From an uncultured Candidatus Saccharibacteria bacterium (GTDB lineage Bacteria; Patescibacteriota; Saccharimonadia; Saccharimonadales; Saccharimonadaceae): a DNA stretch of 48,310 nucleotides. This document shows, piece after piece, positions 27 through 44,814 of the stretch. Location of the stretch: contig CAYSSH010000001.1 in assembly GCA_964433705.1 (NCBI GenBank), positions 1-48,310 of the forward strand, in the 5' to 3' direction. Position 1 is the stretch's first letter; every line of letters begins with the position of its first letter. A program made the translations under genes and the position numbers. The notes beneath the pieces were generated by a model. It ran no database searches and had not been told where the DNA came from. It worked only from the letters and a program-made list of their open reading frames with translations.

Positions 27-76
27 ATGTCTTCCTTGTAGATTGTTAATGCCTGAACAATTCGCCCCGCCACCAG
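27..76 (+). repeat. Intergenic ~40-50 bp repeat, copy 1 (candidate recombination or operator site)
   Basis: ATGTCTTCCTTGTAGATTGTTAATGCCTGAACAATTCGCC; contains inverted core ATTGTT-N8-AACAAT; similar copies at 826, 1069, 1488, 38204. Confidence 0.85.
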
Positions 77-108
77 ATTTTATATAACTCGGCAATTTAG
101 CCGATTTT

Positions 109-768
109 TTAGAATTCAGAAAAGGCATCCTCTTTTGTCATCTCATTTAAGGCAGTACTTTGCAATAGCTCAAGATTATTGCCAGACAACACATATGAAT
201 AGTCATAGCCATTAAGCGTAGTTATTAGCGCTGAACAACTCGTACGACAATTTTCAAAATCAATCTCCCCCGCTTTACTCCTCACAATTTGTAACAAGTT
301 ATTGCTATTCCAATCCATTTGTTGTCCATATGAATACGCAGATGCGTAATCAGTAATCTCTAAATAATCAAAATAATCATTGCTACTAAAAATATAGCCA
401 ACCTTACCAATTAAACTTTCTGGTATTTTTATTTTTACTCCCCACTCCCCAATATAGATATAATCTTTCGAATTGCCATCAACAATGGTATCTATTATTG
501 TTGCTACCGTTCCGTCATTAGCACTGGTTTCAATTTCAGGTGTTTTAATTGTAGTAATTGTTTCATCATTTTCTTTTATCTGAACTTTCAGATCAGAAAT
601 CTGACTATCCTTTTGTGAACTTTGTATCATACCATAAACGCCAAACCCAATACCACAAACCGCCACAATACACGCAATCGCAGTCGCAATTTTTAAACCA
701 TTTCCACTTTTTTGCTTATTGTCTATTACTGGCGTCATTTGCGCTCCAGTATCAACATTTTGTTCCAT
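109..768 (-). CDS. Single-pass membrane-anchored surface protein (N-terminal TM + coiled coil + variable C-terminal domain)
   Basis: 219-aa ORF, TM IATAIACIVAVCGIGFGVYGMI, SD AGAAAGGA, TGCTATAAT promoter upstream; N-terminus resembles ORF 35859-36671. Confidence 0.8.
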   Translation of the reverse strand: MEQNVDTGAQMTPVIDNKQKSGNGLKIATAIACIVAVCGIGFGVYGMIQSSQKDSQISDLKVQIKENDETITTIKTPEIETSANDGTVATIIDTIVDGNSKDYIYIGEWGVKIKIPESLIGKVGYIFSSNDYFDYLEITDYASAYSYGQQMDWNSNNLLQIVRSKAGEIDFENCRTSCSALITTLNGYDYSYVLSGNNLELLQSTALNEMTKEDAFSEF

Positions 769-825
769 TGAATTCCTTTCTGTAATATTTATGCTTCTAT
801 TATAGCATGGTTTAACTTATCCCAA

Positions 826-877
826 ATATCTTCCTTGTAAATTGTTAATATCTGCCAAATTCGCCTCTATTTACCAG
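826..877 (+). repeat. Intergenic repeat copy 2
   Basis: ATATCTTCCTTGTAAATTGTTAATATCTGCCAAATTCGCC. Confidence 0.85.
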
Positions 878-915
878 TGTCGACAAGAGATAACCTCTAT
901 GATAAAATATAGAGA

Positions 916-996
916 ATGAAAAGTAAAAATATCAAGCGAGGTAGAGTCGTCACGCCAGCAGACGCAAATCCGTGGCCACACGAACAGAAGGTATAA
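916..996 (+). pseudogene. Truncated gene remnant MKSKNIKRGRVVTPADANPWPHEQKV*
   Basis: 26-codon ORF just after TGATAAAAT -10 element and followed by a terminator hairpin; lies between repeat copies 2 and 3. Confidence 0.5.
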
Positions 997-1015
997 AATC
1001 ACCAATTACCGATAT

Positions 1016-1040
1016 GCTCCTACCGCAGGAGCTTCTTTTT
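1016..1040 (+). terminator. Intrinsic terminator
   Basis: GCTCCT-ACCGC-AGGAGC followed by TTCTTTTT. Confidence 0.6.
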
Positions 1041-1068
1041 ATAGTATTCAAGCAATCTAGCTCCATTC

Positions 1069-1100
1069 TCTTCCTTGTAGATTGTTAATACCTGAGCAAT
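1069..1100 (+). repeat. Intergenic repeat copy 3
   Basis: TCTTCCTTGTAGATTGTTAATACCTGAGCAAT. Confidence 0.85.
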
Positions 1101-1122
1101 ATACTCATTAATCTATGTGTCT

Positions 1123-1377
1123 TTATTTTTGGCACTGGTTTACGCTCTCTATTTCTTGAAGTTCAAAGCGATATTTTTGTTTTGCATTAGGGCATTTCCC
1201 GCTTTCGACTTCAGAGATAAACATGTCATACGGGCGACACCACAAACGGGAATCTCCATATAATGCACGATATGCCACCATTTTTTCCTTGGTCTCGGAA
1301 TGATAAATTATGTCCTCTACCAAATAAAGATCGCCCTTATAATGTTTATATATACCATGAATCTTGACTTGTCGCAT
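1123..1377 (-). CDS. DUF1653 domain protein
   Basis: Motifs GIYKHYKG, HSET, VAYRALYG, WCRPYDMF, YRFE typical of DUF1653. Confidence 0.85.
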   Translation of the reverse strand: MRQVKIHGIYKHYKGDLYLVEDIIYHSETKEKMVAYRALYGDSRLWCRPYDMFISEVESGKCPNAKQKYRFELQEIESVNQCQK

Positions 1378-1487
1378 TGCCTATACTCCTATTATCTACT
1401 ATCATACCATATTTTCGTGTTATAATAATGATATGTCTAAATAATCTCGATATTTTTTAGATAAGCACGAAACTGTTTTAGCCCGAC

Positions 1488-1510
1488 CTGTTAATACCCT
1501 AAACAATTAG
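1488..1510 (+). repeat. Partial intergenic repeat copy 4 (core and right arm only)
   Basis: CTGTTAATACCCTAAACAATTAG. Confidence 0.5.
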
Positions 1511-1536: not shown

Positions 1537-3288
1537 TTACTTCAAAACGCCGTTTTTCATATCTTGGAAAATACCTGGTACATCAGAAAGTTGATCAAAA
1601 GTGCCACGTTGGACAATTTTGCCTTTATCTATCACAATGATCTCATCACAATTCTGTAAAGTGGTTAATCTATGTGCAATAGATATAATTGTGGTACCAT
1701 ACTCTGACTTAAGCTTTTCTATCTCTTTTTGGATGTGTTTTTCCGAAGTATTATCAAGTGCGGAAGTAGCTTCATCTAGAATTAAAATCTTTGGTTTACG
1801 CAGGAAAATACGTGCAAGTGCAATACGCTGACGTTGTCCGCCCGACAAGTTCCTGCCTCCTTCTGAAATTACAAAATCATACTTTTTCGGTAAATTGTTA
1901 ATCGTATCTTCAAGATTTGCGCTTCTGGCGGCCGCCGAAATTGCCTCTGGAGAAATTTTTTCTTCTAAGCCATAGGTAATATTCTCGGCGATCGTCCCAG
2001 CAACCAAAAATGGAGTTTGTGGAACTAACGCAATGGACCTAGCGATTTCGGAACGGCTTAATTGTCCAATTTCGATACCACCAATTTTTATCATGCCATC
2101 GGCCTGCTCCAATTTATCTATGATTTTTATAAGAGTTGATTTGCCACAACCGCTAGGTCCAACCACGCCGATAAACTTTCCCTTATCTATTTCAAGATTT
2201 ATGTCATTTAGTATCTTCTTATTTGGCTCCTCATCATAACCCATCGAGACATCTCTAAGCAAAATGTTATTATTAATAATTTCATCATAATATTTGTCGC
2301 CTGTGGCATAAGAAAAATCTTTCGGTAAGTATGCAATCCTAAAATAGTCATCCGCCAAAACTTTACATTCCGATAATTCATCTAGGATTCTATGTAGCTC
2401 TCGAAGCGGTGCGGTTAGCTGAGTAAAACATAAATAAACAGTCAAAATGGATCCTACCGCAATGATACCATTTGAGGCAAGTACTACGGAAATAGCGATA
2501 ACTAGAACAGTAAAAACAGCTTCATTAATAAACTTAGCGCAATCATAAAATGCCATAGATTTATGATGTTCCATCTCTCTTGCGCGCAAAACGCTCGATT
2601 TATTCTCCACGCGTGACACTTCCATATCGACACTATTTAGAGAGCGAATCGTTTCGATGCCACCAAGAAGTTCCACCATAGTTCCATCCATTTCGGCTTT
2701 TTGCTCCATTAGATCAACGCGTATGCCACGCTGAGTCTTAATTTGCCTCCAAACAATAAAAAGACCGACAGGGATAACTGCAATGACGAGAAGCGCAATT
2801 AGTGGTGGGAGTTGCGAAAAAATTACGACAATTGCAGCAACTCCTGTAGCTATAGCAGGAGCAAAATCCATAAACACCAGTTTTACTAACTTTGATACCC
2901 CCTCTATGCTACGATTAAGACGCCCATGAATATTGCCAGTCATATGTTTGCGAAAGTAAGATAAAGGAGCCATCATTAGAGCACTAGATGCTTTTACTCT
3001 TGCCCTAAGCTCTACCTTTGTAGCAACACCTTCGACCATCAGCCGCCTAATTACTTTTATGATTTCATTCGAGACGGTGACTATTAAAATAACCAACAAA
3101 ATCGGTATAACTGCTGCAAAAACTATCTCATCTTGAGCTAAAACTTGATCGGTAAGATAGCCAATAGCTAGTGGGGTGATTTGGCTAAGTATCGCCGATA
3201 TCCCAAGAAGAAGCAGAACTAACAAAAAACTAATTTTTTGTTTTTTGTCTAAAATATCATATATTTTTCTAAACAACGATCTTTTCAT
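1537..3288 (-). CDS. ABC exporter, fused permease/ATPase (MsbA/MdlB type)
   Basis: N-terminal TM helices; Walker A GPSGCGKST, signature LSGGQRQR, Walker B ILILDEATSALD, AHRL. Confidence 0.95.
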   Translation of the reverse strand: MKRSLFRKIYDILDKKQKISFLLVLLLLGISAILSQITPLAIGYLTDQVLAQDEIVFAAVIPILLVILIVTVSNEIIKVIRRLMVEGVATKVELRARVKASSALMMAPLSYFRKHMTGNIHGRLNRSIEGVSKLVKLVFMDFAPAIATGVAAIVVIFSQLPPLIALLVIAVIPVGLFIVWRQIKTQRGIRVDLMEQKAEMDGTMVELLGGIETIRSLNSVDMEVSRVENKSSVLRAREMEHHKSMAFYDCAKFINEAVFTVLVIAISVVLASNGIIAVGSILTVYLCFTQLTAPLRELHRILDELSECKVLADDYFRIAYLPKDFSYATGDKYYDEIINNNILLRDVSMGYDEEPNKKILNDINLEIDKGKFIGVVGPSGCGKSTLIKIIDKLEQADGMIKIGGIEIGQLSRSEIARSIALVPQTPFLVAGTIAENITYGLEEKISPEAISAAARSANLEDTINNLPKKYDFVISEGGRNLSGGQRQRIALARIFLRKPKILILDEATSALDNTSEKHIQKEIEKLKSEYGTTIISIAHRLTTLQNCDEIIVIDKGKIVQRGTFDQLSDVPGIFQDMKNGVLK

Positions 3289-3378: not shown

Positions 3379-3421
3379 AAAAATCAGCCTACGTTACCCC
3401 CCTAACGCAGGCTGATTTTTG
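3379..3421 (-). terminator. Intrinsic terminator hairpin downstream of oxidoreductase gene
   Basis: CAAAAATCAGCCT...AGGCTGATTTTTG long stem; the A/C mismatch becomes G-U on the minus strand. Confidence 0.75.
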
Positions 3422-27579: not shown

Positions 27580-29937
27580 ATGCCAAAAGTCATACATTTA
27601 TCAAATCTAATCAAAACAGTCAGAACTTATTCATTTCTTCATCTTCGCAGTCACTCATCTTTGTCCACTACCTCCACGTCCCTCTCTCGTGGAGGAGTGG
27701 CCGGTGGTATTGTAGGGCTTCTTGCTCTCACACTTACTCCTGCCACTATATATAATATATATAACGTTAGCTCTGCCTTTGCTGCAGACGCCTCAGATAC
27801 GAAATCCCTAGACTTCACCGTCATCAGCGAAAAATCTATTGACATCACTCTTTCTTCTAGTTCCGTTGCTCTCTCCATCCAACCTACCGCTGAAGGTAAG
27901 TTCGGACGTAGCTCTCTTGATGTTAATGTATCTACCAATAACACTACCGGCTATAATTTAACTATGCAGGCCAGTACCGATACTCTTACTAGAAGCACTC
28001 AGGTTAACAACACTACCTATACCATTACCCCCCTCTCTCAATCTATCACTTGTACCTCCGAAACCGCTTCTTCTTGTACTGGTTGGACTAGCTCCTATGC
28101 CAATAACCAATGGGGTTATCGTATAGATAATGGTACAACCTATACTTCCATGACTGGTGCCGTTTCTAACGCTGCTACTATTAAAACCACCTCTGCTTCC
28201 GCCAATACCAGTAGCACTACCGTCTATTTTGGCGCTAAACTAGACAATGCCATTCCCGTAGGCTCATACGAAGGAGTAACCTTAACTTTCATGGCCGTCA
28301 CTAATCCTATCGCCGCAATTAACGATATGACTTATCTCCAGGAATTTTATGGCCTAGATTCAGCCACCAAGAATAATATTTCCTCGTCCATGACTACCAA
28401 TGTCCCATATAAACTAGTAGATTCTCGTGACGGCACTATCTATAATATCGCCAAACTCGCAGACGGCAACATCTGGTTCCTAGATAACCTCCGCCTGGAC
28501 CTCACGAACAATACCGTTAAGACTAACCTCACTCCCACTACTACTAACGCTACAGATACCGCCCTTAACTGCCTTAAAAACGGTAATTGCTCAAGCCCAT
28601 ATTCTCTAACTGCAGTAAGTGGCACATGGGGTGACAATACTTTTACAGATGCACGTATCAATACTACCTACGCCACCACCATAAACTCAGACTCTTCCAA
28701 AAACTACGGTGACGGCTCTCACATGTATGGCGTTTATTATAACTTTTGTGCAGCCTCAGCTGGTTCATATTGCTACGCTGGGGGAGCATCTCCAGATGGC
28801 GTGAATGCTTCTGAAGATATCTGCCCCGCTGGTTGGCATATGCCTACCGCAGATTCATGGGGCGTCCTTAGGAACACTATTAACAGCAATACCGCTTCTA
28901 ACTCTGCTTCTATCCAAGCTAGGTTGTCCTTGCCACTCTCTGGCTACTTCAACAATGGGTCCGCGAACGGTCAGGGTTCGGGCGGCTTCTGGTGGTCTTC
29001 TACGTGGGGCGCTAGCTACGACGCTATGTCCTACTTCAACGCGACTGCTACGCTTACGAAGATGGACGTCATCTACCGTCGCTACCTCGGTTACTCGATG
29101 CGGTGTCTGATGCCTGGCCCGAAGACGATAGATGACGTTTCCACTCTCCAAGATTTTGCTTTGCTTTCCGCGGATGATAAACAGTTCTTTCTTGATAGTA
29201 TGACTGAGAACCAAGTCTACGAAAAGACCGATTCCCGCGATGGGCAGACCTACAAAATCGCCAAACTCGCAGACGGCAACATCTGGTTCCTAGATAACCT
29301 CCGCCTAGACCTCACGAAATCTTCCGTAAAATATACCATTTCTCCCGCTGACACGAACGCTAGCCAAACCGCCATTAACTGCCTAACGGGCAGAACTACG
29401 GGCTGTGCTTCACCATATACTACTGCTGCAGTAAGTGGCACATGGAGCAATGCTTATACAGGCGCACGTATCAATACTACCTATGCCACCACCATAGACT
29501 CAGACTCTTCCAAAAACTACGGTAACGGCTCCCATATATATGGCGTATATTATAACTACTGCGCCGCTTCAGCTGGTTCCTATTGCTACGCTTCTGGAGC
29601 AGGTACCGGTAACGCTTCCGAAGACATCTGCCCCGCTGGTTGGCGTATGCCTACCGGAGACGCTGATGGCGAATGGGGCGCCCTAGACTCGCTTATAAAC
29701 AACCGCACTGCTTCTGACTCCGCTTCTATCCAGGCTAGGTTGTCCTTGCCCCTCTCTGGCGGCTTCTACGATGGGTCGGCGAGCGAACAGGGTTTGGACG
29801 GCTACTGGTGGTCTTCTACGCGGAACTTTGGCGACCTCATGTACCGCTTCTACGCGGATACTACGAGTACGGATGCGACGAACAGCAACTTTCGCGACTA
29901 CGGTCTCTCGTTGCGCTGTCTGTTCTCGGCTTCGTAG
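27580..29937 (+). CDS. Secreted surface protein with two Fib_succ_major/FISUMP-like (CLec-fold) domains; probable DGR target
   Basis: Two copies of DSRDG..Y.IAKLADGNIWFLDNLRL...YGVYYN.CAASAG...DICPAGW.MPT...G.WWSST...G.S.RCL. Confidence 0.85.
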   Translation: MPKVIHLSNLIKTVRTYSFLHLRSHSSLSTTSTSLSRGGVAGGIVGLLALTLTPATIYNIYNVSSAFAADASDTKSLDFTVISEKSIDITLSSSSVALSIQPTAEGKFGRSSLDVNVSTNNTTGYNLTMQASTDTLTRSTQVNNTTYTITPLSQSITCTSETASSCTGWTSSYANNQWGYRIDNGTTYTSMTGAVSNAATIKTTSASANTSSTTVYFGAKLDNAIPVGSYEGVTLTFMAVTNPIAAINDMTYLQEFYGLDSATKNNISSSMTTNVPYKLVDSRDGTIYNIAKLADGNIWFLDNLRLDLTNNTVKTNLTPTTTNATDTALNCLKNGNCSSPYSLTAVSGTWGDNTFTDARINTTYATTINSDSSKNYGDGSHMYGVYYNFCAASAGSYCYAGGASPDGVNASEDICPAGWHMPTADSWGVLRNTINSNTASNSASIQARLSLPLSGYFNNGSANGQGSGGFWWSSTWGASYDAMSYFNATATLTKMDVIYRRYLGYSMRCLMPGPKTIDDVSTLQDFALLSADDKQFFLDSMTENQVYEKTDSRDGQTYKIAKLADGNIWFLDNLRLDLTKSSVKYTISPADTNASQTAINCLTGRTTGCASPYTTAAVSGTWSNAYTGARINTTYATTIDSDSSKNYGNGSHIYGVYYNYCAASAGSYCYASGAGTGNASEDICPAGWRMPTGDADGEWGALDSLINNRTASDSASIQARLSLPLSGGFYDGSASEQGLDGYWWSSTRNFGDLMYRFYADTTSTDATNSNFRDYGLSLRCLFSAS
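28939..29109 (+). repeat. Putative DGR variable region VR1 (internal domain)
   Basis: Differs from VR2 mostly at codon positions 1-2 of NNC/NNT codons. Confidence 0.65.
29755..29937 (+). repeat. Putative DGR variable region VR2 (3' end of gene)
   Basis: Same signature; at the gene 3' end and followed by a GC-rich tract with hairpins. Confidence 0.75.
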
Positions 29938-35858: not shown

Positions 35859-36671
35859 ATGGAACCAAACCAAAACCTAAACCCACAAATGCCAACTCAA
35901 CCAAACGCAGGTACGCCGCCAGTCAATCCGATGCCTACCCAGATGGCCCAATCGGCAACTCAGCCAACCGCTGCTGCGCCATCCCAACCAACCCAGCCGG
36001 TGCCCGCCCCTGCTTCTCCTGAGCAACAGATTGCTGCCGAATTGGAGCAAGCTGCCGCCGAGGATATGGCGAAAGCCGCGGCAATGAAGGAGGCTGCGGA
36101 AAAGGAAGCTGCGCTTGAAGCTGCTAAACCAAAGCAAAGCAAAGGTATGGTAGCTGGTCTTGTGATTGCTTGTCTTGTTGCTGTTGCAGGTATTGGTTTT
36201 GGTGCCTATTCCATGATTTCAAGTAGCCAGAATATTGATAGCCTTAATAAACAGATTACGACCTTAAAAAACACCAACAGCAATCTCGAAAGCCAAGTTG
36301 CTGATATGCCAGAGCTAACCGGTGAAGAAGCGTTGTCGCTTCTAAGCAACGCTGCTCTTTCCACCAACGCCGGCTATAAAATCGCTTTTGCGAACGTCTA
36401 TGCTGTCTATACCGGTAGCGAAGATGACGAAGAAGATGTTACCGCCTATTGGGTGAAATACTTACCAGTCGAAATGACCGAAGGTTCTACTTCCGCTGAC
36501 AATATCATTTTCACTTTAAACGATGAGGGTGAATGGGACTTTACTTTGCCTGGTTTCGTAACTTACGACTCAACCTTTACTGCTAACTACGAGCTATTGA
36601 ACGGCGAAAAAGTTCCTGCGAATGTTGTCAACTCAACCGAAACCGTTGTTGAAGAAGTTGTTGAAGAGTAA
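35859..36671 (+). CDS. Single-pass membrane protein (Pro/Gln-rich N-terminus, TM, coiled coil, acidic domain)
   Basis: TM VIACLVAVAGIGFGAYSMI resembles that of ORF 109-768. Confidence 0.8.
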   Translation: MEPNQNLNPQMPTQPNAGTPPVNPMPTQMAQSATQPTAAAPSQPTQPVPAPASPEQQIAAELEQAAAEDMAKAAAMKEAAEKEAALEAAKPKQSKGMVAGLVIACLVAVAGIGFGAYSMISSSQNIDSLNKQITTLKNTNSNLESQVADMPELTGEEALSLLSNAALSTNAGYKIAFANVYAVYTGSEDDEEDVTAYWVKYLPVEMTEGSTSADNIIFTLNDEGEWDFTLPGFVTYDSTFTANYELLNGEKVPANVVNSTETVVEEVVEE

Positions 36672-37582: not shown

Positions 37583-37659
37583 GGGTGATTAGCTCAGTTG
37601 GCTAGAGCGTCTCGTTTACACCGAGAAGGTCGGGGGTTCAAGCCCCTCATCACCCACCA
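37583..37659 (+). tRNA. tRNA-Val (UAC)
   Basis: GGGTGAT/ATCACCC acceptor, TCTCG-TTTACAC-CGAGA anticodon arm, CCA end. Confidence 0.96.
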
Positions 37660-37800
37660 AACGGTTTATAAAATTATTTTTATCTATTTCGTAATCTATA
37701 AATGTCTGTTAAATCCCCAACAATTTACCCTAATCAATGTAATCTAATAATTCTTTGAACTTTTGAATGTAACCGTTTCTTCAAATGATTTATAGCCCAT

Positions 37801-38203: not shown

Positions 38204-38251
38204 ATGTCCTCCTTGCATGTTGTTAATACCTGGCGGATTAAGCCACACCAG
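38204..38251 (+). repeat. Diverged copy of the intergenic repeat seen at 27, 826 and 1069
   Basis: ATGTCCTCCTTGCATGTTGTTAATACCTGGCGGATTAAGCCACACCAG. Confidence 0.7.
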
Positions 38252-38434: not shown

Positions 38435-39085
38435 ATGCTTAAAGTTGTGGTATTTGATTGTGGTATCGGTGGAGAATTGTTCGCCGATCACCTAGAAAAA
38501 GAGTTGGGAGTTGTGGAGGTGATTCGGGTTATTGATTGGCGGAACTCAGGTGAGTATTTAAAAAGTTCACATTCTGCCAGAAAGACAGCCGAATGCGCTT
38601 TAAAGCCTTACATCGGCAACGTGGATTTGATCATAGTTGCAAATTATTTACTCGCAACCACGAGTTTAAAATACTTCAAGAATAAATATCAATCTCAGAA
38701 GTTTATCGGATTTGTGTTCAAGACCAAACGCGTCATAATGGAAAAACCTACGTTAATTCTCACCACCAAGGCTACAACTAAAAGTTTTTCGTTCGTTAGT
38801 TTTTCGCATCGCATCAAGGCTAAAACTATTTGTTTTGATACATGGCCCCTCCTTATTGATGACGGGGAACTAACCTACGATGTGCTAAAAGATGATGTCA
38901 GAAACGCAATGTCATCGTTCCGCAACTTTTCTCCCGAGCAAATTATGCTCGCCTGTGGTCAATTCTCCGAGGTGACGCCAGACCTCCGTAAGATTTTTGG
39001 CCACAATGTCCGCTTTATTGATAGTTTTGAACATACCATTGGCGAAGCAAAGAAAGCTCTAAAAATCCGCGGAAGTAGCTGCTAA
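38435..39085 (+). CDS. Glutamate racemase-like protein (degenerate active site)
   Basis: VFDCGIGG start motif; IIVANYL in place of VIACNT; MLACGQF in place of LGCTHY. Confidence 0.7.
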   Translation: MLKVVVFDCGIGGELFADHLEKELGVVEVIRVIDWRNSGEYLKSSHSARKTAECALKPYIGNVDLIIVANYLLATTSLKYFKNKYQSQKFIGFVFKTKRVIMEKPTLILTTKATTKSFSFVSFSHRIKAKTICFDTWPLLIDDGELTYDVLKDDVRNAMSSFRNFSPEQIMLACGQFSEVTPDLRKIFGHNVRFIDSFEHTIGEAKKALKIRGSSC

Positions 39086-39141
39086 GTCCTCCAAAATAGC
39101 CTAGTTTATGATATAATAAATAGGTAAAAGAAAGGATAAAG

Positions 39142-40905
39142 ATGAATACTCCATACGAAGAAACCGAAATATATAAGATGCGACATACTTTAAGTCATGT
39201 TCTCGCCGCGGCTATTACGGAGCTTTATCCTACAGCAAAATTCGGCATCGGACCAGCCATTGAAAACGGTTTTTATTACGATATTGATTTTGGTGACGCT
39301 AAGGTTAGCGACTCTGACCTTTCCCGCATTGAGAAGAAGATGCGTGGCATCGTTGCGCGTAACCTACCGATGACAAAGCGGATTTCCTCGAAGACCGAGG
39401 CGCTAAACTGGGCGCGTGACAAGGCACAGGGCTACAAAATTGAACTCATTAACGAACTTCCAGAAAGTGCCGAAATCAGTTTTTATGACTTAGGCGATAT
39501 TTTTACCGATCTCTGCAAAGGACCGCATCTTGACAACACCAACGATGTTGGCGCATTTAAATTGATCCGAGTTGCCGGCGCATATTGGCGAGGTGACGAA
39601 AAACGCAATATGCTAACACGTATCTACGGTGTCGCTTTCGATACCGAAGCGGAATTGGACGAATATCTAAAGCGCCAAGAAGAGGCCAAGGCAAGAGATC
39701 ACCGCAAACTTGGCAGGGAATTAGACTTATTCTGCTTTAGCGACCTCGTTGGCGCTGGACTACCGCTGTTTACTCCTCGTGGCACAGAACTGCGTGAACT
39801 AATGGCGAATTACTCGCTGTCGTTGCGCGGCAGAGAAGGTTTTAAAAAGGTCTGGACCCCGCATATTACAAAAACTGACCTTTATAAAGCCTCTGGACAT
39901 TATGCTAAATTTGGCGATGAACTATTTATGGTTCATTCTCAGGTCAATGGTGAGGATTTTGCCATGAAACCAATGAACTGCCCACATCACGCCCAAATTT
40001 TTGCCTCTCGCCCGCGCACTTATAAAGAAATGCCGGTGCGCTATATGGAAGCGACGACCGATTATCGCGATGAAAAGACTGGTGAACTTGGCGGTCTTTC
40101 TCGCGTGCGTTCCTTAACTCAAGATGATTCGCATGTCTTCTGTCGCAAAGACCAGATAAAAGACGAAGTTAAGCGCCTAGTGGCCATCGTTAAAGAACTT
40201 TATACGACAGTCGGGATGCAGAAGCTCCGCGCGAGATTGTCCTATCGCTCTGATGAGGACAAGTATTTGGGTGACAAAAAGCTCTGGGAAATGGCACAAA
40301 AACAAATTAAGCAAGCCGCAATTGATAACGGACTAGATTATTTTGAACAGGAAGGTGAAGCCGCGTTCTATGGGCCAAAAATTGATTTTATGGCCGAAGA
40401 CGCCATTGGTCGCGAGCATCAACTTGCTACCATTCAACTAGATTTTGTTCAGCCTGAACGTTTTGGGCTGGAATTTGTTAATGAAAAAGGCGAAAAGGAG
40501 CGACCAGTTATGATTCACCACGCTACGCTTGGTTCAATCGAACGCTTCTTGTCTGTCTTTATTGAACATACTGGCGGCTGGTTCCCATTCTGGTGTGCTC
40601 CTGAACAAGTCCGTATCATTACTGTTAATAACGAAATTTCTGACTACGTTACGAAAATTACAGACGTCTTAAGTGAGATAGTTCTTGACAAGCCACTAAA
40701 ATATAATGAACTACGCTTCGCTGTAGATGACTCCGCGGACTCACTCGGTAAAAAGATTAAACGTGCTACCGAAATGAAAATACCGGTTCTCCTTATTGTT
40801 GGTCCAAAAGATGCGAAAGAGGGGATTGTATCCGTCCGCCTTCGCGATAGAGAAGAGAAAACTAATCTCAAAGAACTCGCAGCCTTCCTGAAAGAACTAA
40901 AATAG
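39142..40905 (+). CDS. thrS: Threonine--tRNA ligase (no N-terminal TGS domain)
   Basis: RHTLSHVLA, DLCKGPH, RDHRKLG, KPMNCPHH, AAFYGPKID. Confidence 0.98.
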   Translation: MNTPYEETEIYKMRHTLSHVLAAAITELYPTAKFGIGPAIENGFYYDIDFGDAKVSDSDLSRIEKKMRGIVARNLPMTKRISSKTEALNWARDKAQGYKIELINELPESAEISFYDLGDIFTDLCKGPHLDNTNDVGAFKLIRVAGAYWRGDEKRNMLTRIYGVAFDTEAELDEYLKRQEEAKARDHRKLGRELDLFCFSDLVGAGLPLFTPRGTELRELMANYSLSLRGREGFKKVWTPHITKTDLYKASGHYAKFGDELFMVHSQVNGEDFAMKPMNCPHHAQIFASRPRTYKEMPVRYMEATTDYRDEKTGELGGLSRVRSLTQDDSHVFCRKDQIKDEVKRLVAIVKELYTTVGMQKLRARLSYRSDEDKYLGDKKLWEMAQKQIKQAAIDNGLDYFEQEGEAAFYGPKIDFMAEDAIGREHQLATIQLDFVQPERFGLEFVNEKGEKERPVMIHHATLGSIERFLSVFIEHTGGWFPFWCAPEQVRIITVNNEISDYVTKITDVLSEIVLDKPLKYNELRFAVDDSADSLGKKIKRATEMKIPVLLIVGPKDAKEGIVSVRLRDREEKTNLKELAAFLKELK

Positions 40906-44427: not shown

Positions 44428-44473
44428 CGTCGCCTATCTTTACAAAATGCCGTTGGTGTAGTATAATAATGAA

Positions 44474-44808
44474 GAGCCTGAAAGATGACCGCCTACTTTG
44501 TAGGAGGAAAGTCCGGGCAACAGAGAGCAGGGTAGTCGCTAACAGCGACCGTCCGTAAGGATAGGGAAAGTACCACAGAAACTTATACCGCCGGCATCCG
44601 CCGGTAAGGGTGAAAAGAGTGAGGTAAGAGCTCACAGCGCGTCGTAGCGATATGTCGCGGAGGCAAACCCTACCTGTTGCAAGGAGTACTATTTACCTCG
44701 GCTCGGGGATGTACGCTTACCGCTTGAGCGTTATAGCAATGTAACGTCTAGATAGATGGTCATCGCCCCTGTAACCCAGAGGCACAGAACCCGGCTTATA
44801 GATGGCTC
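44474..44808 (+). ncRNA. rnpB: RNase P RNA (type A)
   Basis: GAGGAAAGTCCGGGC, AGTACCACAGAAA, GGCAAACCC and ACAGAACCCGGCTTAT conserved regions; TATAAT upstream. Confidence 0.97.
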
Positions 44809-44814
44809 ATTATC

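Follow-up and report, generated by a model that had tools for sequence, protein, structure and literature searches.

Features of the locus

The window (the whole stretch of DNA analysed here, 48,310 nucleotides) begins at a contig end of an assembly of 506 kb in 36 contigs that is 64% complete. Close to this end lie three direct copies of a repeat, all on the same strand, and the intervals hold unrelated single units: a gene for a 219-aa protein on the minus strand, a CdiA_C-like remnant with a terminator on the plus strand, and a DUF1653 gene on the minus strand (Table 1). Copies and intervals alike are as an earlier note on this DNA had described them.

Table 1. Positions in the window of the features discussed in the text, with arms and cores named as interpreted there (LSR, large serine recombinase).
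Feature	Position	Strand	Description
Site 1	28..75	+	Complete right arm (type A) and core
Core and left arm	70..112	+	Truncated left arm, type A; non-coding derivative of an LSR gene 3' end
Cargo 1	109..768	-	219-aa predicted surface or membrane-anchored protein, N-terminally hydrophobic
Site 2	827..866	+	Right arm without intact core; no left arm after it
Cargo 2	916..996	+	26-codon remnant of a CdiA_C-domain gene
Site 3	1068..1100	+	Left two-thirds of a right arm; core lost
Cargo 3	1123..1377	-	DUF1653
Distal motif of left arm	1488..1510	+	Left boundary of the ABC cassette
Cargo 4	1537..3288	-	ABC transporter, 583 aa; its right arm lost in the window
Hairpin	3379..3420	+	In relatives, shortly behind initiator-type tRNA-Met
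tRNA-Val(TAC)	37583..37659	+	Anchor of a second array, one unit
Core and left arm	37654..37717	+	Type B, directly behind tRNA-Val
Right arm and degenerate core	38205..38250	+	Type B; closes a 591-bp unit with gene remnants only

Scored with a profile built from 15 sites, all from other genomes, sites 1, 2 and 3 reach 44.1, 30.8 and 28.1 bits, and a fourth copy, 591 bp behind the tRNA-Val gene, reaches 24.1 bits; the best score over 50 dinucleotide shuffles of the window was 9.4 bits. The repeat of about 40 bp in the earlier note is real but longer than was thought: in same-genus genomes the full repeat measures about 46 bp and its 3' terminus is the tRNA end CCACCA. Site 1 runs into a second conserved arm (32.9 bits), and a terminator-like hairpin at 89-104 lies within this type-A left arm. 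Two further details of the earlier description did not survive. The stretch at 1488-1510, taken for a partial copy, scores below 5 bits with the repeat profile and is the distal motif of the left arm of the ABC cassette; and conservation does not extend to the inverted core ATTGTT-N8-AACAAT, whose right half falls on the most variable codon of the arm, where that variant is found in 48 of 156 type-A arms.

Several familiar kinds of repeat were considered and set aside. A REP element, a CRISPR repeat and a structured RNA were rejected on finding no Rfam match over the sites, and a CRISPR array on finding no PF01867 match in the assembly and a spacing between copies of 240-800 bp. A transposase fragment beside the C18 copy had raised the possibility of a terminal repeat from a family that we take to be IS481; this was ruled out, because the repeat pairs with tRNA ends and with islands that carry an LSR.

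The cargo genes have relatives elsewhere in the genus. A Pfam search with the 219-aa cargo 1 protein gave no match, and its family is the cargo in 26 of 170 parsed units. Full-length relatives of cargo 2 have 132 aa and belong to PF18451, a domain call made on a full-length relative standing in for the 26-codon remnant; this remnant has a promoter-like site at 880-908 and its terminator at 1016-1032. The irregular junction at site 2 recurs 5' of CdiA_C-like genes in other arrays. The cargo 3 unit (1113-1487) has a 94.5% identical counterpart in another genome (G116) in which the array order differs. In the window it is joined to the ABC cassette exactly at the distal left-arm motif (1488-1490), which normally lies about 142 nt behind the core.

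Cassette arrays at tRNA genes across the genus

Where the repeat occurs in same-genus genomes it lies downstream of tRNA genes and in the same orientation as they do. The layout is a tRNA gene ending in CCACCA, a left arm, a gene, a right arm ending in CCACCA, the next left arm, and so on, the longest arrays having about seven units; the left arm follows the tRNA CCA without a gap, and follows many of the repeat copies in the same way. A unit thus runs from a core through a left arm of about 142 nt and one or two genes with their own promoter to a right arm and the next core. Among 202 left-arm sites, what precedes the arm is a tRNA 3' end in 79, a right arm in 93, another CCA-ending sequence in 26, something else in two, and a contig edge in two. 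The median unit length is 996 bp (170 units up to 5 kb), and 91 of 112 units shorter than 5 kb contain one ORF. Over the same 170 units the anchors carry nine ARAGORN labels in total: Phe (22), Met (19), Val(CAC) (11), Ile(GAT) (9), Val(TAC) (4), Ile(TAT) (3), Leu (2), Ala (1) and Lys (1). Since loci were chosen with type-A patterns, these anchor and unit counts lean to type A.

The scan of related Saccharibacteria with a profile of the copies, an idea already present in the earlier note, was productive: with 25 candidates scored in each genome, a junction model found matches in 96 of the 149 genomes from the same genus and in none of 148 from other genera of the order. An exact-pattern search of 185,579 genomes returned 92 stretches. 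Taxa were inferred here from record titles, which among the matches listed name Candidatus Saccharibacteria or Candidatus Nanosyncoccus and, once, an 'uncultured bacterium'; many come from ruminant gut.

What counts as one unit can be read from the arm types. Left and right arms are of the same type within 111 of 117 units, against about 74 expected from the marginals, and across junctions the types agree in 20 of 30 and are mixed A/B in 10 of 30. Because types match within units more consistently than across junctions, a unit is bounded by its left and right arms, and exchange takes place at the core. An LSR match is absent from 112 of the 117 parsed units; the parser omitted one LSR-bearing unit of 7.6 kb (L311). 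In 72 of 89 single-ORF units the gene is oriented towards the tRNA, and the right arm adjoins the cargo promoter in most units. Decay with rank in the array is weak (left-arm scores 64.8, 58.3 and 54.6; intact cores 53/61, 16/21 and 11/13).

Read against this layout, the left end of the window is the decayed distal end of a tRNA cassette array. That array runs on to the left, as the earlier note supposed, and its probable anchor is an initiator tRNA-Met beyond the contig. None of the contigs in the assembly overlaps the start of the window. The choice of anchor is drawn from five observations. The hairpin at 3379-3420 has its counterpart shortly behind initiator-type tRNA-Met in relatives, and would be the native sequence behind the array. 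Bases 65-75, within site 1, equal the last 11 nt of the relatives' initiator-type tRNA-Met. This tRNA adjoins an oxidoreductase gene in all 11 relatives inspected, seven of which have an orientation that would place an array at the position of the window. No tRNA-Met is among the 22 tRNAs of the 64% complete assembly, and one relative (G193) carries a type-A cassette at an initiator-type tRNA-Met. Gut metagenome contigs aligned to the window break at 68 and 70, with a loose end also at 112, and in three of four runs the letters 5' of 70 are those of a tRNA T-arm.

Serine recombinase islands and the coding origin of the arms

The same arms bound larger islands. One LSR clade, with Resolvase, Recombinase and zinc-ribbon domains (DUF4368 was not detected with Pfam), lies directly behind tRNA 3' ends at 16 of 20 loci inspected. 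Its gene points towards the tRNA; the last 50 or so codons are the left arm, and the frame continues into the antisense strand of the tRNA. The islands (7-15 kb) close with a right arm of matching type: both arms are present in a type-B island of 13 kb at tRNA-Val, in type-C islands of 9.7 and 14.8 kb at tRNA-Gln, and in a type-A island of 7.6 kb with a truncated LSR. Joining island ends in silico carries the LSR frame across the core into the right arm, where it terminates 11-25 codons later. The frame is open across the reconstructed attP in the four island junctions and the one coding-type cassette that were examined, and the minus-strand reading of site 1 in the window is the LSR C-terminal peptide of the circular form.

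Right arms bear the marks of this coding role. They are free of stops in the LSR frame in 193 of 209 cases, and their single-base variants comprise 142 synonymous, 182 non-synonymous and 3 stop changes against 26:74:8 possible, counts that are not a formal test because the sequences are related. Left arms of cassettes are non-coding LSR derivatives. Whatever the species or tRNA, they have their stop and frame lesions in common and so did not decay independently of one another. Sequence comparison thus shows that the left arm descends from the 3' end of an LSR gene and that the right arm encodes the C-terminus that the LSR would have on the circle.

The suggestion in the earlier note that the copies are recombination-site arms of a cassette array is well supported. 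As to the identity of the sites, we consider it very probable that they are the right-hand attachment arms of small cassettes that lack a recombinase and are stacked at tRNA genes. The recombinase had also been placed outside the stretch, and rightly: none is encoded in the window, and the LSR is carried by the related islands. Near-full-length members of the clade (at least 51% identity) occur in 21 of 369 genus genomes, and none of the near-full-length genomic LSRs whose ends were inspected is of type A; intact type-A LSRs (P0159-P0161) were found only in a metagenome protein collection. In the source assembly (64% complete) there was no resolvase-domain match and no intact LSR, and the 3' third of an LSR lies behind tRNA-Leu on contig C35.

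Other LSR clades occupy tRNA-Lys, -Gly, -Tyr, -Arg and -Asn and some tRNA-Met, -Ile and -Gln genes, without these arms. Cassettes are sometimes found behind the far ends of such other-clade elements.

An inverted pair of hexamers, seen by eye, is centred on the terminal CCA. When inverted symmetry was scanned, the CCA axis ranked second for type B and outside the top four for type A.

Movement of cassettes and reassortment of cargo and arms

Near-identical cassettes occur at different tRNA genes in different genomes. A Nudix cassette of 704-705 bp (96-99% identical) directly follows tRNA-Phe, -Met or -Val and also occupies internal positions in two arrays. A methyltransferase cassette of 927-932 bp (94-96%) is found at Met, Phe and Lys and inside a Val array; in two genomes that share such cassettes a neighbouring host gene is 43% identical as protein. 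The ABC unit of the window shares 97% identity with a cassette that is complete, with both arms, and stands at another locus in a genome (G368) whose core oxidoreductase region is 71% identical to that of the window, and in a third array (G270) the ABC gene lies 5' of a right arm. Comparison between genomes, which the earlier note had in mind, thus found a gene order that is not fixed: DUF1653 stands in another order in G116, and the ABC gene elsewhere in G368.

Arms and cargo do not share one history. Among 26 same-cargo pairs in 10 clusters (units above 5 kb excluded), the first 142 or so nt differ at 10-44 positions in 24, about as random arms do; of the others, one is a nearly identical pair at the same tRNA and one has no measurement. 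Identity between such pairs jumps at the distal left-arm motif, which was placed about 13 nt off in four of the units compared. Conversely, left arms that are 94-96% identical stand 5' of cargo genes that are unrelated and lie at different tRNAs. Nor is the arm downstream of the cargo inherited together with it: identities are 0.65-0.76 in the three testable pairs, which do not support a Campbell-type model with cargo travelling with the left arm downstream of it. Taken together, these patterns imply that arms move between tRNAs at the core and that cargo moves between arms near the distal motif. If an LSR alone transported the units, left arm and cargo would travel together, and the 24 pairs show otherwise.

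The motif TGTTAA has three direct-orientation occurrences per unit, and hybrids between them occur. The earlier note expected breakpoints within TGTTAAT. One does fall there, at 1488-1490 in the window, but the units are defined by exchange at the tRNA 3' end, the CCACCA just to the right of the motif.

Proposed mechanism and alternatives

We propose that the LSR of related larger islands inserts and excises cassettes at tRNA CCACCA ends, and that this includes action in trans on the small units; we put the probability of this reading at roughly 0.6. An island or cassette circle would present right arm, core and left arm as attP, which the LSR would recombine with the 3' end of any of several tRNA genes, leaving the tRNA intact. 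The target tRNAs would share little beyond the T-loop and CCACCA, crossover would take place within the terminal CCA, and arrays would grow next to the tRNA. Cassettes may have arisen from islands through internal deletion and then spread as two lineages of non-coding arms, A and B. Cargo would be exchanged between arms by a further process, homologous or site-specific recombination in or close to the distal left-arm motif, and distal sites would erode through deletion. Counting against the proposal as a whole are the rarity of intact LSRs, the uncoupling of cargo from arms, the weak decay with rank, the symmetry scan, in which no axis at the core stood out for type A, and the outcome of the circle searches given below.

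A somewhat unlikely alternative is that the units are CIME-like relics of decayed LSR islands, which have lost the ability to recombine by themselves, move only in cis beside an active island, and whose cargo is spread by homologous recombination between arms after DNA uptake. Its attraction is that cargo is uncoupled from the left arm and that identity rises abruptly in the block nearest the cargo, which is the best conserved, a pattern expected of repeated homologous crossovers; intact LSRs are, moreover, rare, and searches for circles found none. The circle searches covered several sources. There were no terminal repeats in 45 metagenome loci, no viral contigs with the exact pattern, and no circle-form C-terminal peptide among 15 LSR proteins, and no circles were seen in the metagenome contigs (contigs, not raw reads) aligned to the window. 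Contig joints at which the sequence 'goes back' were not counted as circles, since tandem cassettes of other strains fit them equally. Both CIMEs and tandem accretion have, besides, been described (PMC5704250, PMC3146451). Against relics stand the derived non-coding left arms behind nine tRNA types, the arms 94-96% identical at different tRNAs, and the mixed A/B junctions, which also arise at the core. The same arms at nine tRNA types imply repeated exchange at a core of 6 bp, a length insufficient for homologous recombination. Mobilisation in cis could account for part of the spread of arms over tRNAs; as the distribution stands, spread over so many of them suggests more than movement in cis.

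The trans-acting LSR reading can also be extended to a two-level cassette system, in which the LSR, complete only on the excised circle, docks reusable arms on nearly any tRNA that ends in CCACCA and a site-specific exchange at the distal motif loads the genes. We regard this version as speculative and unlikely. If it were true, integration would alter the C-terminus of the LSR and so act as a switch, and the system would be an integron equivalent with a serine recombinase, its attB little more than the tRNA T-loop and CCA.

It is very improbable that a tyrosine recombinase, possibly the host Xer-like enzyme, acts in integron fashion on TGTTAAT and that the link to tRNAs is secondary. The start of cargo identity at the distal TGTTAA, the position of the DUF1653-ABC join, the hybrids between copies and the presence of a tyrosine recombinase in 147 of 151 genus genomes all fit such a scheme. 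However, TGTTAA has no conserved inverted partner, all three copies are LSR coding sequence in the islands, and deletions between short direct repeats suffice to account for the hybrids. The site proposed in the earlier note, inverted arms around an 8-bp spacer, is not supported either: its inverted half is the most variable part of the arm, no dominant symmetry axis lies there, and the arms are tied to an LSR. Nor is an integron integrase at hand. The sole tyrosine recombinase found in the 64% complete assembly is a core Xer-like gene that sits beside ndk, far from the arrays, with a best score of 128 bits against TIGR02249 (cut-off 265), and the most that an Xer-like enzyme could provide is the second exchange point; it would leave the anchoring at tRNAs unexplained.

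That the repeat is a regulator's operator, or a terminator-linked repeat beside accessory-gene promoters, is hardly credible and largely refuted by the island boundaries: the right arm does lie near the cargo promoter (the tRNA-ward orientation noted above) and the type-A left arm has its hairpin, but the repeat ends in the tRNA-end core, pairs with a type-matched left arm and marks the limits of LSR islands, and it accompanies unrelated genes from locus to locus.

Relation to known systems

Integrons hold arrays of single-gene cassettes behind a fixed site, and the same cassette occurs in different arrays and at different ranks. The arrays described here resemble them in having one-gene cassettes, some common to different loci. 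They differ in enzyme family, in having several arrays per genome at tRNAs and cassettes with their own promoters, and in lacking an IntI above the cut-off and attC-type hairpin sites.

The ssrA islands of Dehalococcoides are closer. As described in PMC3146451, these have DsiB, a serine recombinase of about 540 aa, and stand in tandem, with direct repeats, behind the 3' end of an RNA gene; many have no integration module, the recombinase gene overlaps attL, and McMurdie et al. (2011) suggested that DsiB is fully functional perhaps only on the circle. Going by that account, the present system shares the serine recombinase, tandem units at an RNA gene 3' end and recombinase-less members, and its LSR ORFs likewise read through the left arm, into the antisense strand of the tRNA. 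The ssrA islands as reported there have one target, a 20-bp repeat and a six-gene module, whereas here there are at least nine tRNA types and a 6-bp core; Pfam searches of five neighbours of two LSRs found none of the module families (dsiA, recF-like, parB and mom among them). The present units are also small, at about 1 kb and a single gene each, and we met no mention in that account of non-coding arm lineages held in common or of reassortment between cargo and arms.

Ccr recombinases (CcrAB, CcrC) excise tandem SCC-like, att-bounded neighbours outside their own element (Hossain et al. 2024, PMC11470126). The excision of neighbouring cassettes by LSRs in many combinations is thus a feature of SCC in that report, and it is predicted here. 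SCC cassettes, as presented in the same source, have a single target at the 3' end of rlmH and measure tens of kb, in contrast to the tRNA 3' ends used here, and the LSR scores 40-84 bits against Ccr models with cut-offs of 700-900.

CIMEs, according to a review (PMC5704250), have lost recombinase and transfer genes, retain attL and attR, and are stacked at gene 3' ends; that text links tyrosine recombinases with targets at gene ends and serine recombinases with targets inside genes, and treats CIMEs as decay products moved in cis. The present units are similar in keeping their arms and lacking recombinase and transfer genes (as noted, 112 of the 117 parsed units have no LSR match). They are unlike CIMEs in that a serine recombinase is found at tRNA ends and in that defective arms have multiplied.

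Multi-targeting LSR clades use many attB sites, and their targets are clusters of protein genes (Durrant et al. 2022, PMC10083194). The LSR here is similar to those portrayed there in that one clade uses many attB sites. The main text of that paper does not contain the word 'tRNA', and DUF4368, reported there as common in the multi-targeting clade, is undetected here.

On these published accounts, the system works like ssrA islands, tandem SCC and CIME accretion, and is a member of none of them by target or enzyme. Within the scope of our literature search, which left aside subscription papers and supplements (the latter may hold tables of LSR targets), no description of such arrays in Saccharibacteria was found.

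Significance

Arrays of LSR islands with recombinase-less members are of a general kind already known. What is added here is the range of one arm family over many tRNAs and a definition of the unit by matching arm types, together with the coding signature of the repeat and a point at which cargo and arms reassort. Here a recombinase gene would be interrupted by the very site at which its product attaches the element, and an LSR family that in nature uses many tRNAs through a 6-bp core would be relevant to LSR specificity and to integration tools.

Saccharibacteria have very small genomes and live as episymbionts, and to our knowledge few mobile elements have been described in them. Of the genus genomes searched, about two thirds contain the arms, and the cargo ranges over surface proteins, transporters, methyltransferases, Nudix enzymes and toxin-like domains. 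Given this distribution and this range of cargo, the cassette system may be a main route by which accessory and host-contact genes vary in these episymbionts.

Recombinase genes and islands

Where genes for the large serine recombinase (LSR) occupy internal ranks of an array, the right arm of the upstream cassette completes them into the circle-form C-terminus, i.e. the end that is encoded once the island ends are joined. Three such internal genes have a visible 5' part and all three are broken; intact LSR genes are located at the tRNA. The LSR islands have in common a protein of about 530 amino acids and one or two proteins of about 150-200 amino acids beside the recombinase. These have no clear Pfam family and are candidate components of a module for replication or excision.

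tRNA-associated sequences and array remnants

An LSR 3' remnant and a right arm lie on separate contigs of the window's own assembly (G000). These could be opposite ends of a single tRNA-Leu array, because another genome (G113) has such an array with the same glycosyltransferase downstream of it.

Downstream of several tRNAs, no more than about 70 nt away, 17-24 nt of the tRNA's own 3' end recur as a second copy, and the spacer is palindromic. In relatives such copies also serve as docking places for left arms. Throughout the genus, the initiator tRNA-Met is followed by a conserved hairpin whose loop is C-rich. This trailer hairpin is retained without the tRNA in the window, where it matched no Rfam family.

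The locus encoding a glutamate-racemase-like protein and threonyl-tRNA synthetase is present in G000 as two differing copies, and a type-B right arm stands ahead of each. The bin may be a mixture of two genomes. Elsewhere in the window, a tandem pair of repeats of about 810 bp, with blocks 79-87% identical, probably represents a repeated protein domain.

Features in the window, in other contigs (C) of assembly G000, and at array or LSR loci (L)
Feature	Location	Positions
LSR 3' remnant behind tRNA-Leu(CAA); tRNA-Leu on minus strand	C35	145-519
Right arm adjoining transposase fragment	C18	11170-11752
tRNA end with nearby 3'-end copy	C10	8734
tRNA end with nearby 3'-end copy	C13	1105
tRNA end with nearby 3'-end copy	C15	7996
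Initiator tRNA-Met trailer hairpin	window	3379-3420
Glutamate-racemase-like/threonyl-tRNA synthetase locus	window	38435-40905
Same locus, other copy	C26	757-3248
CdiA_C-like gene, irregular right-arm junction	window	829-1068
CdiA_C-like genes, irregular right-arm junction	L090, L084, L214, L229, L252, L315	
N-terminally hydrophobic cargo family member	window	109-768
More distant look-alike of this family	window	35859-36671
LSR genes at internal ranks	L080, L311, L171, L329, L348	
Shared recombinase-neighbor proteins of an LSR island	L128	9772-11853
Shared recombinase-neighbor proteins of an LSR island	L129	6486-9166
Islands with shared recombinase-neighbor proteins	L296, L309	
Tandem ~810-bp repeats	window	28420-29823
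RNase P RNA, class A	window	44473-44813

Cargo genes

CdiA_C-like genes repeatedly occur 3' of a right arm, without a left arm, via one recurring irregular junction, as though these genes had been captured from a secondary site. One protein family, in which an N-terminal hydrophobic segment is conserved and the C-terminus varies, is the most frequent cargo, at 26 of 170 units. Its members are often in tandem, and they are possible variable surface antigens.
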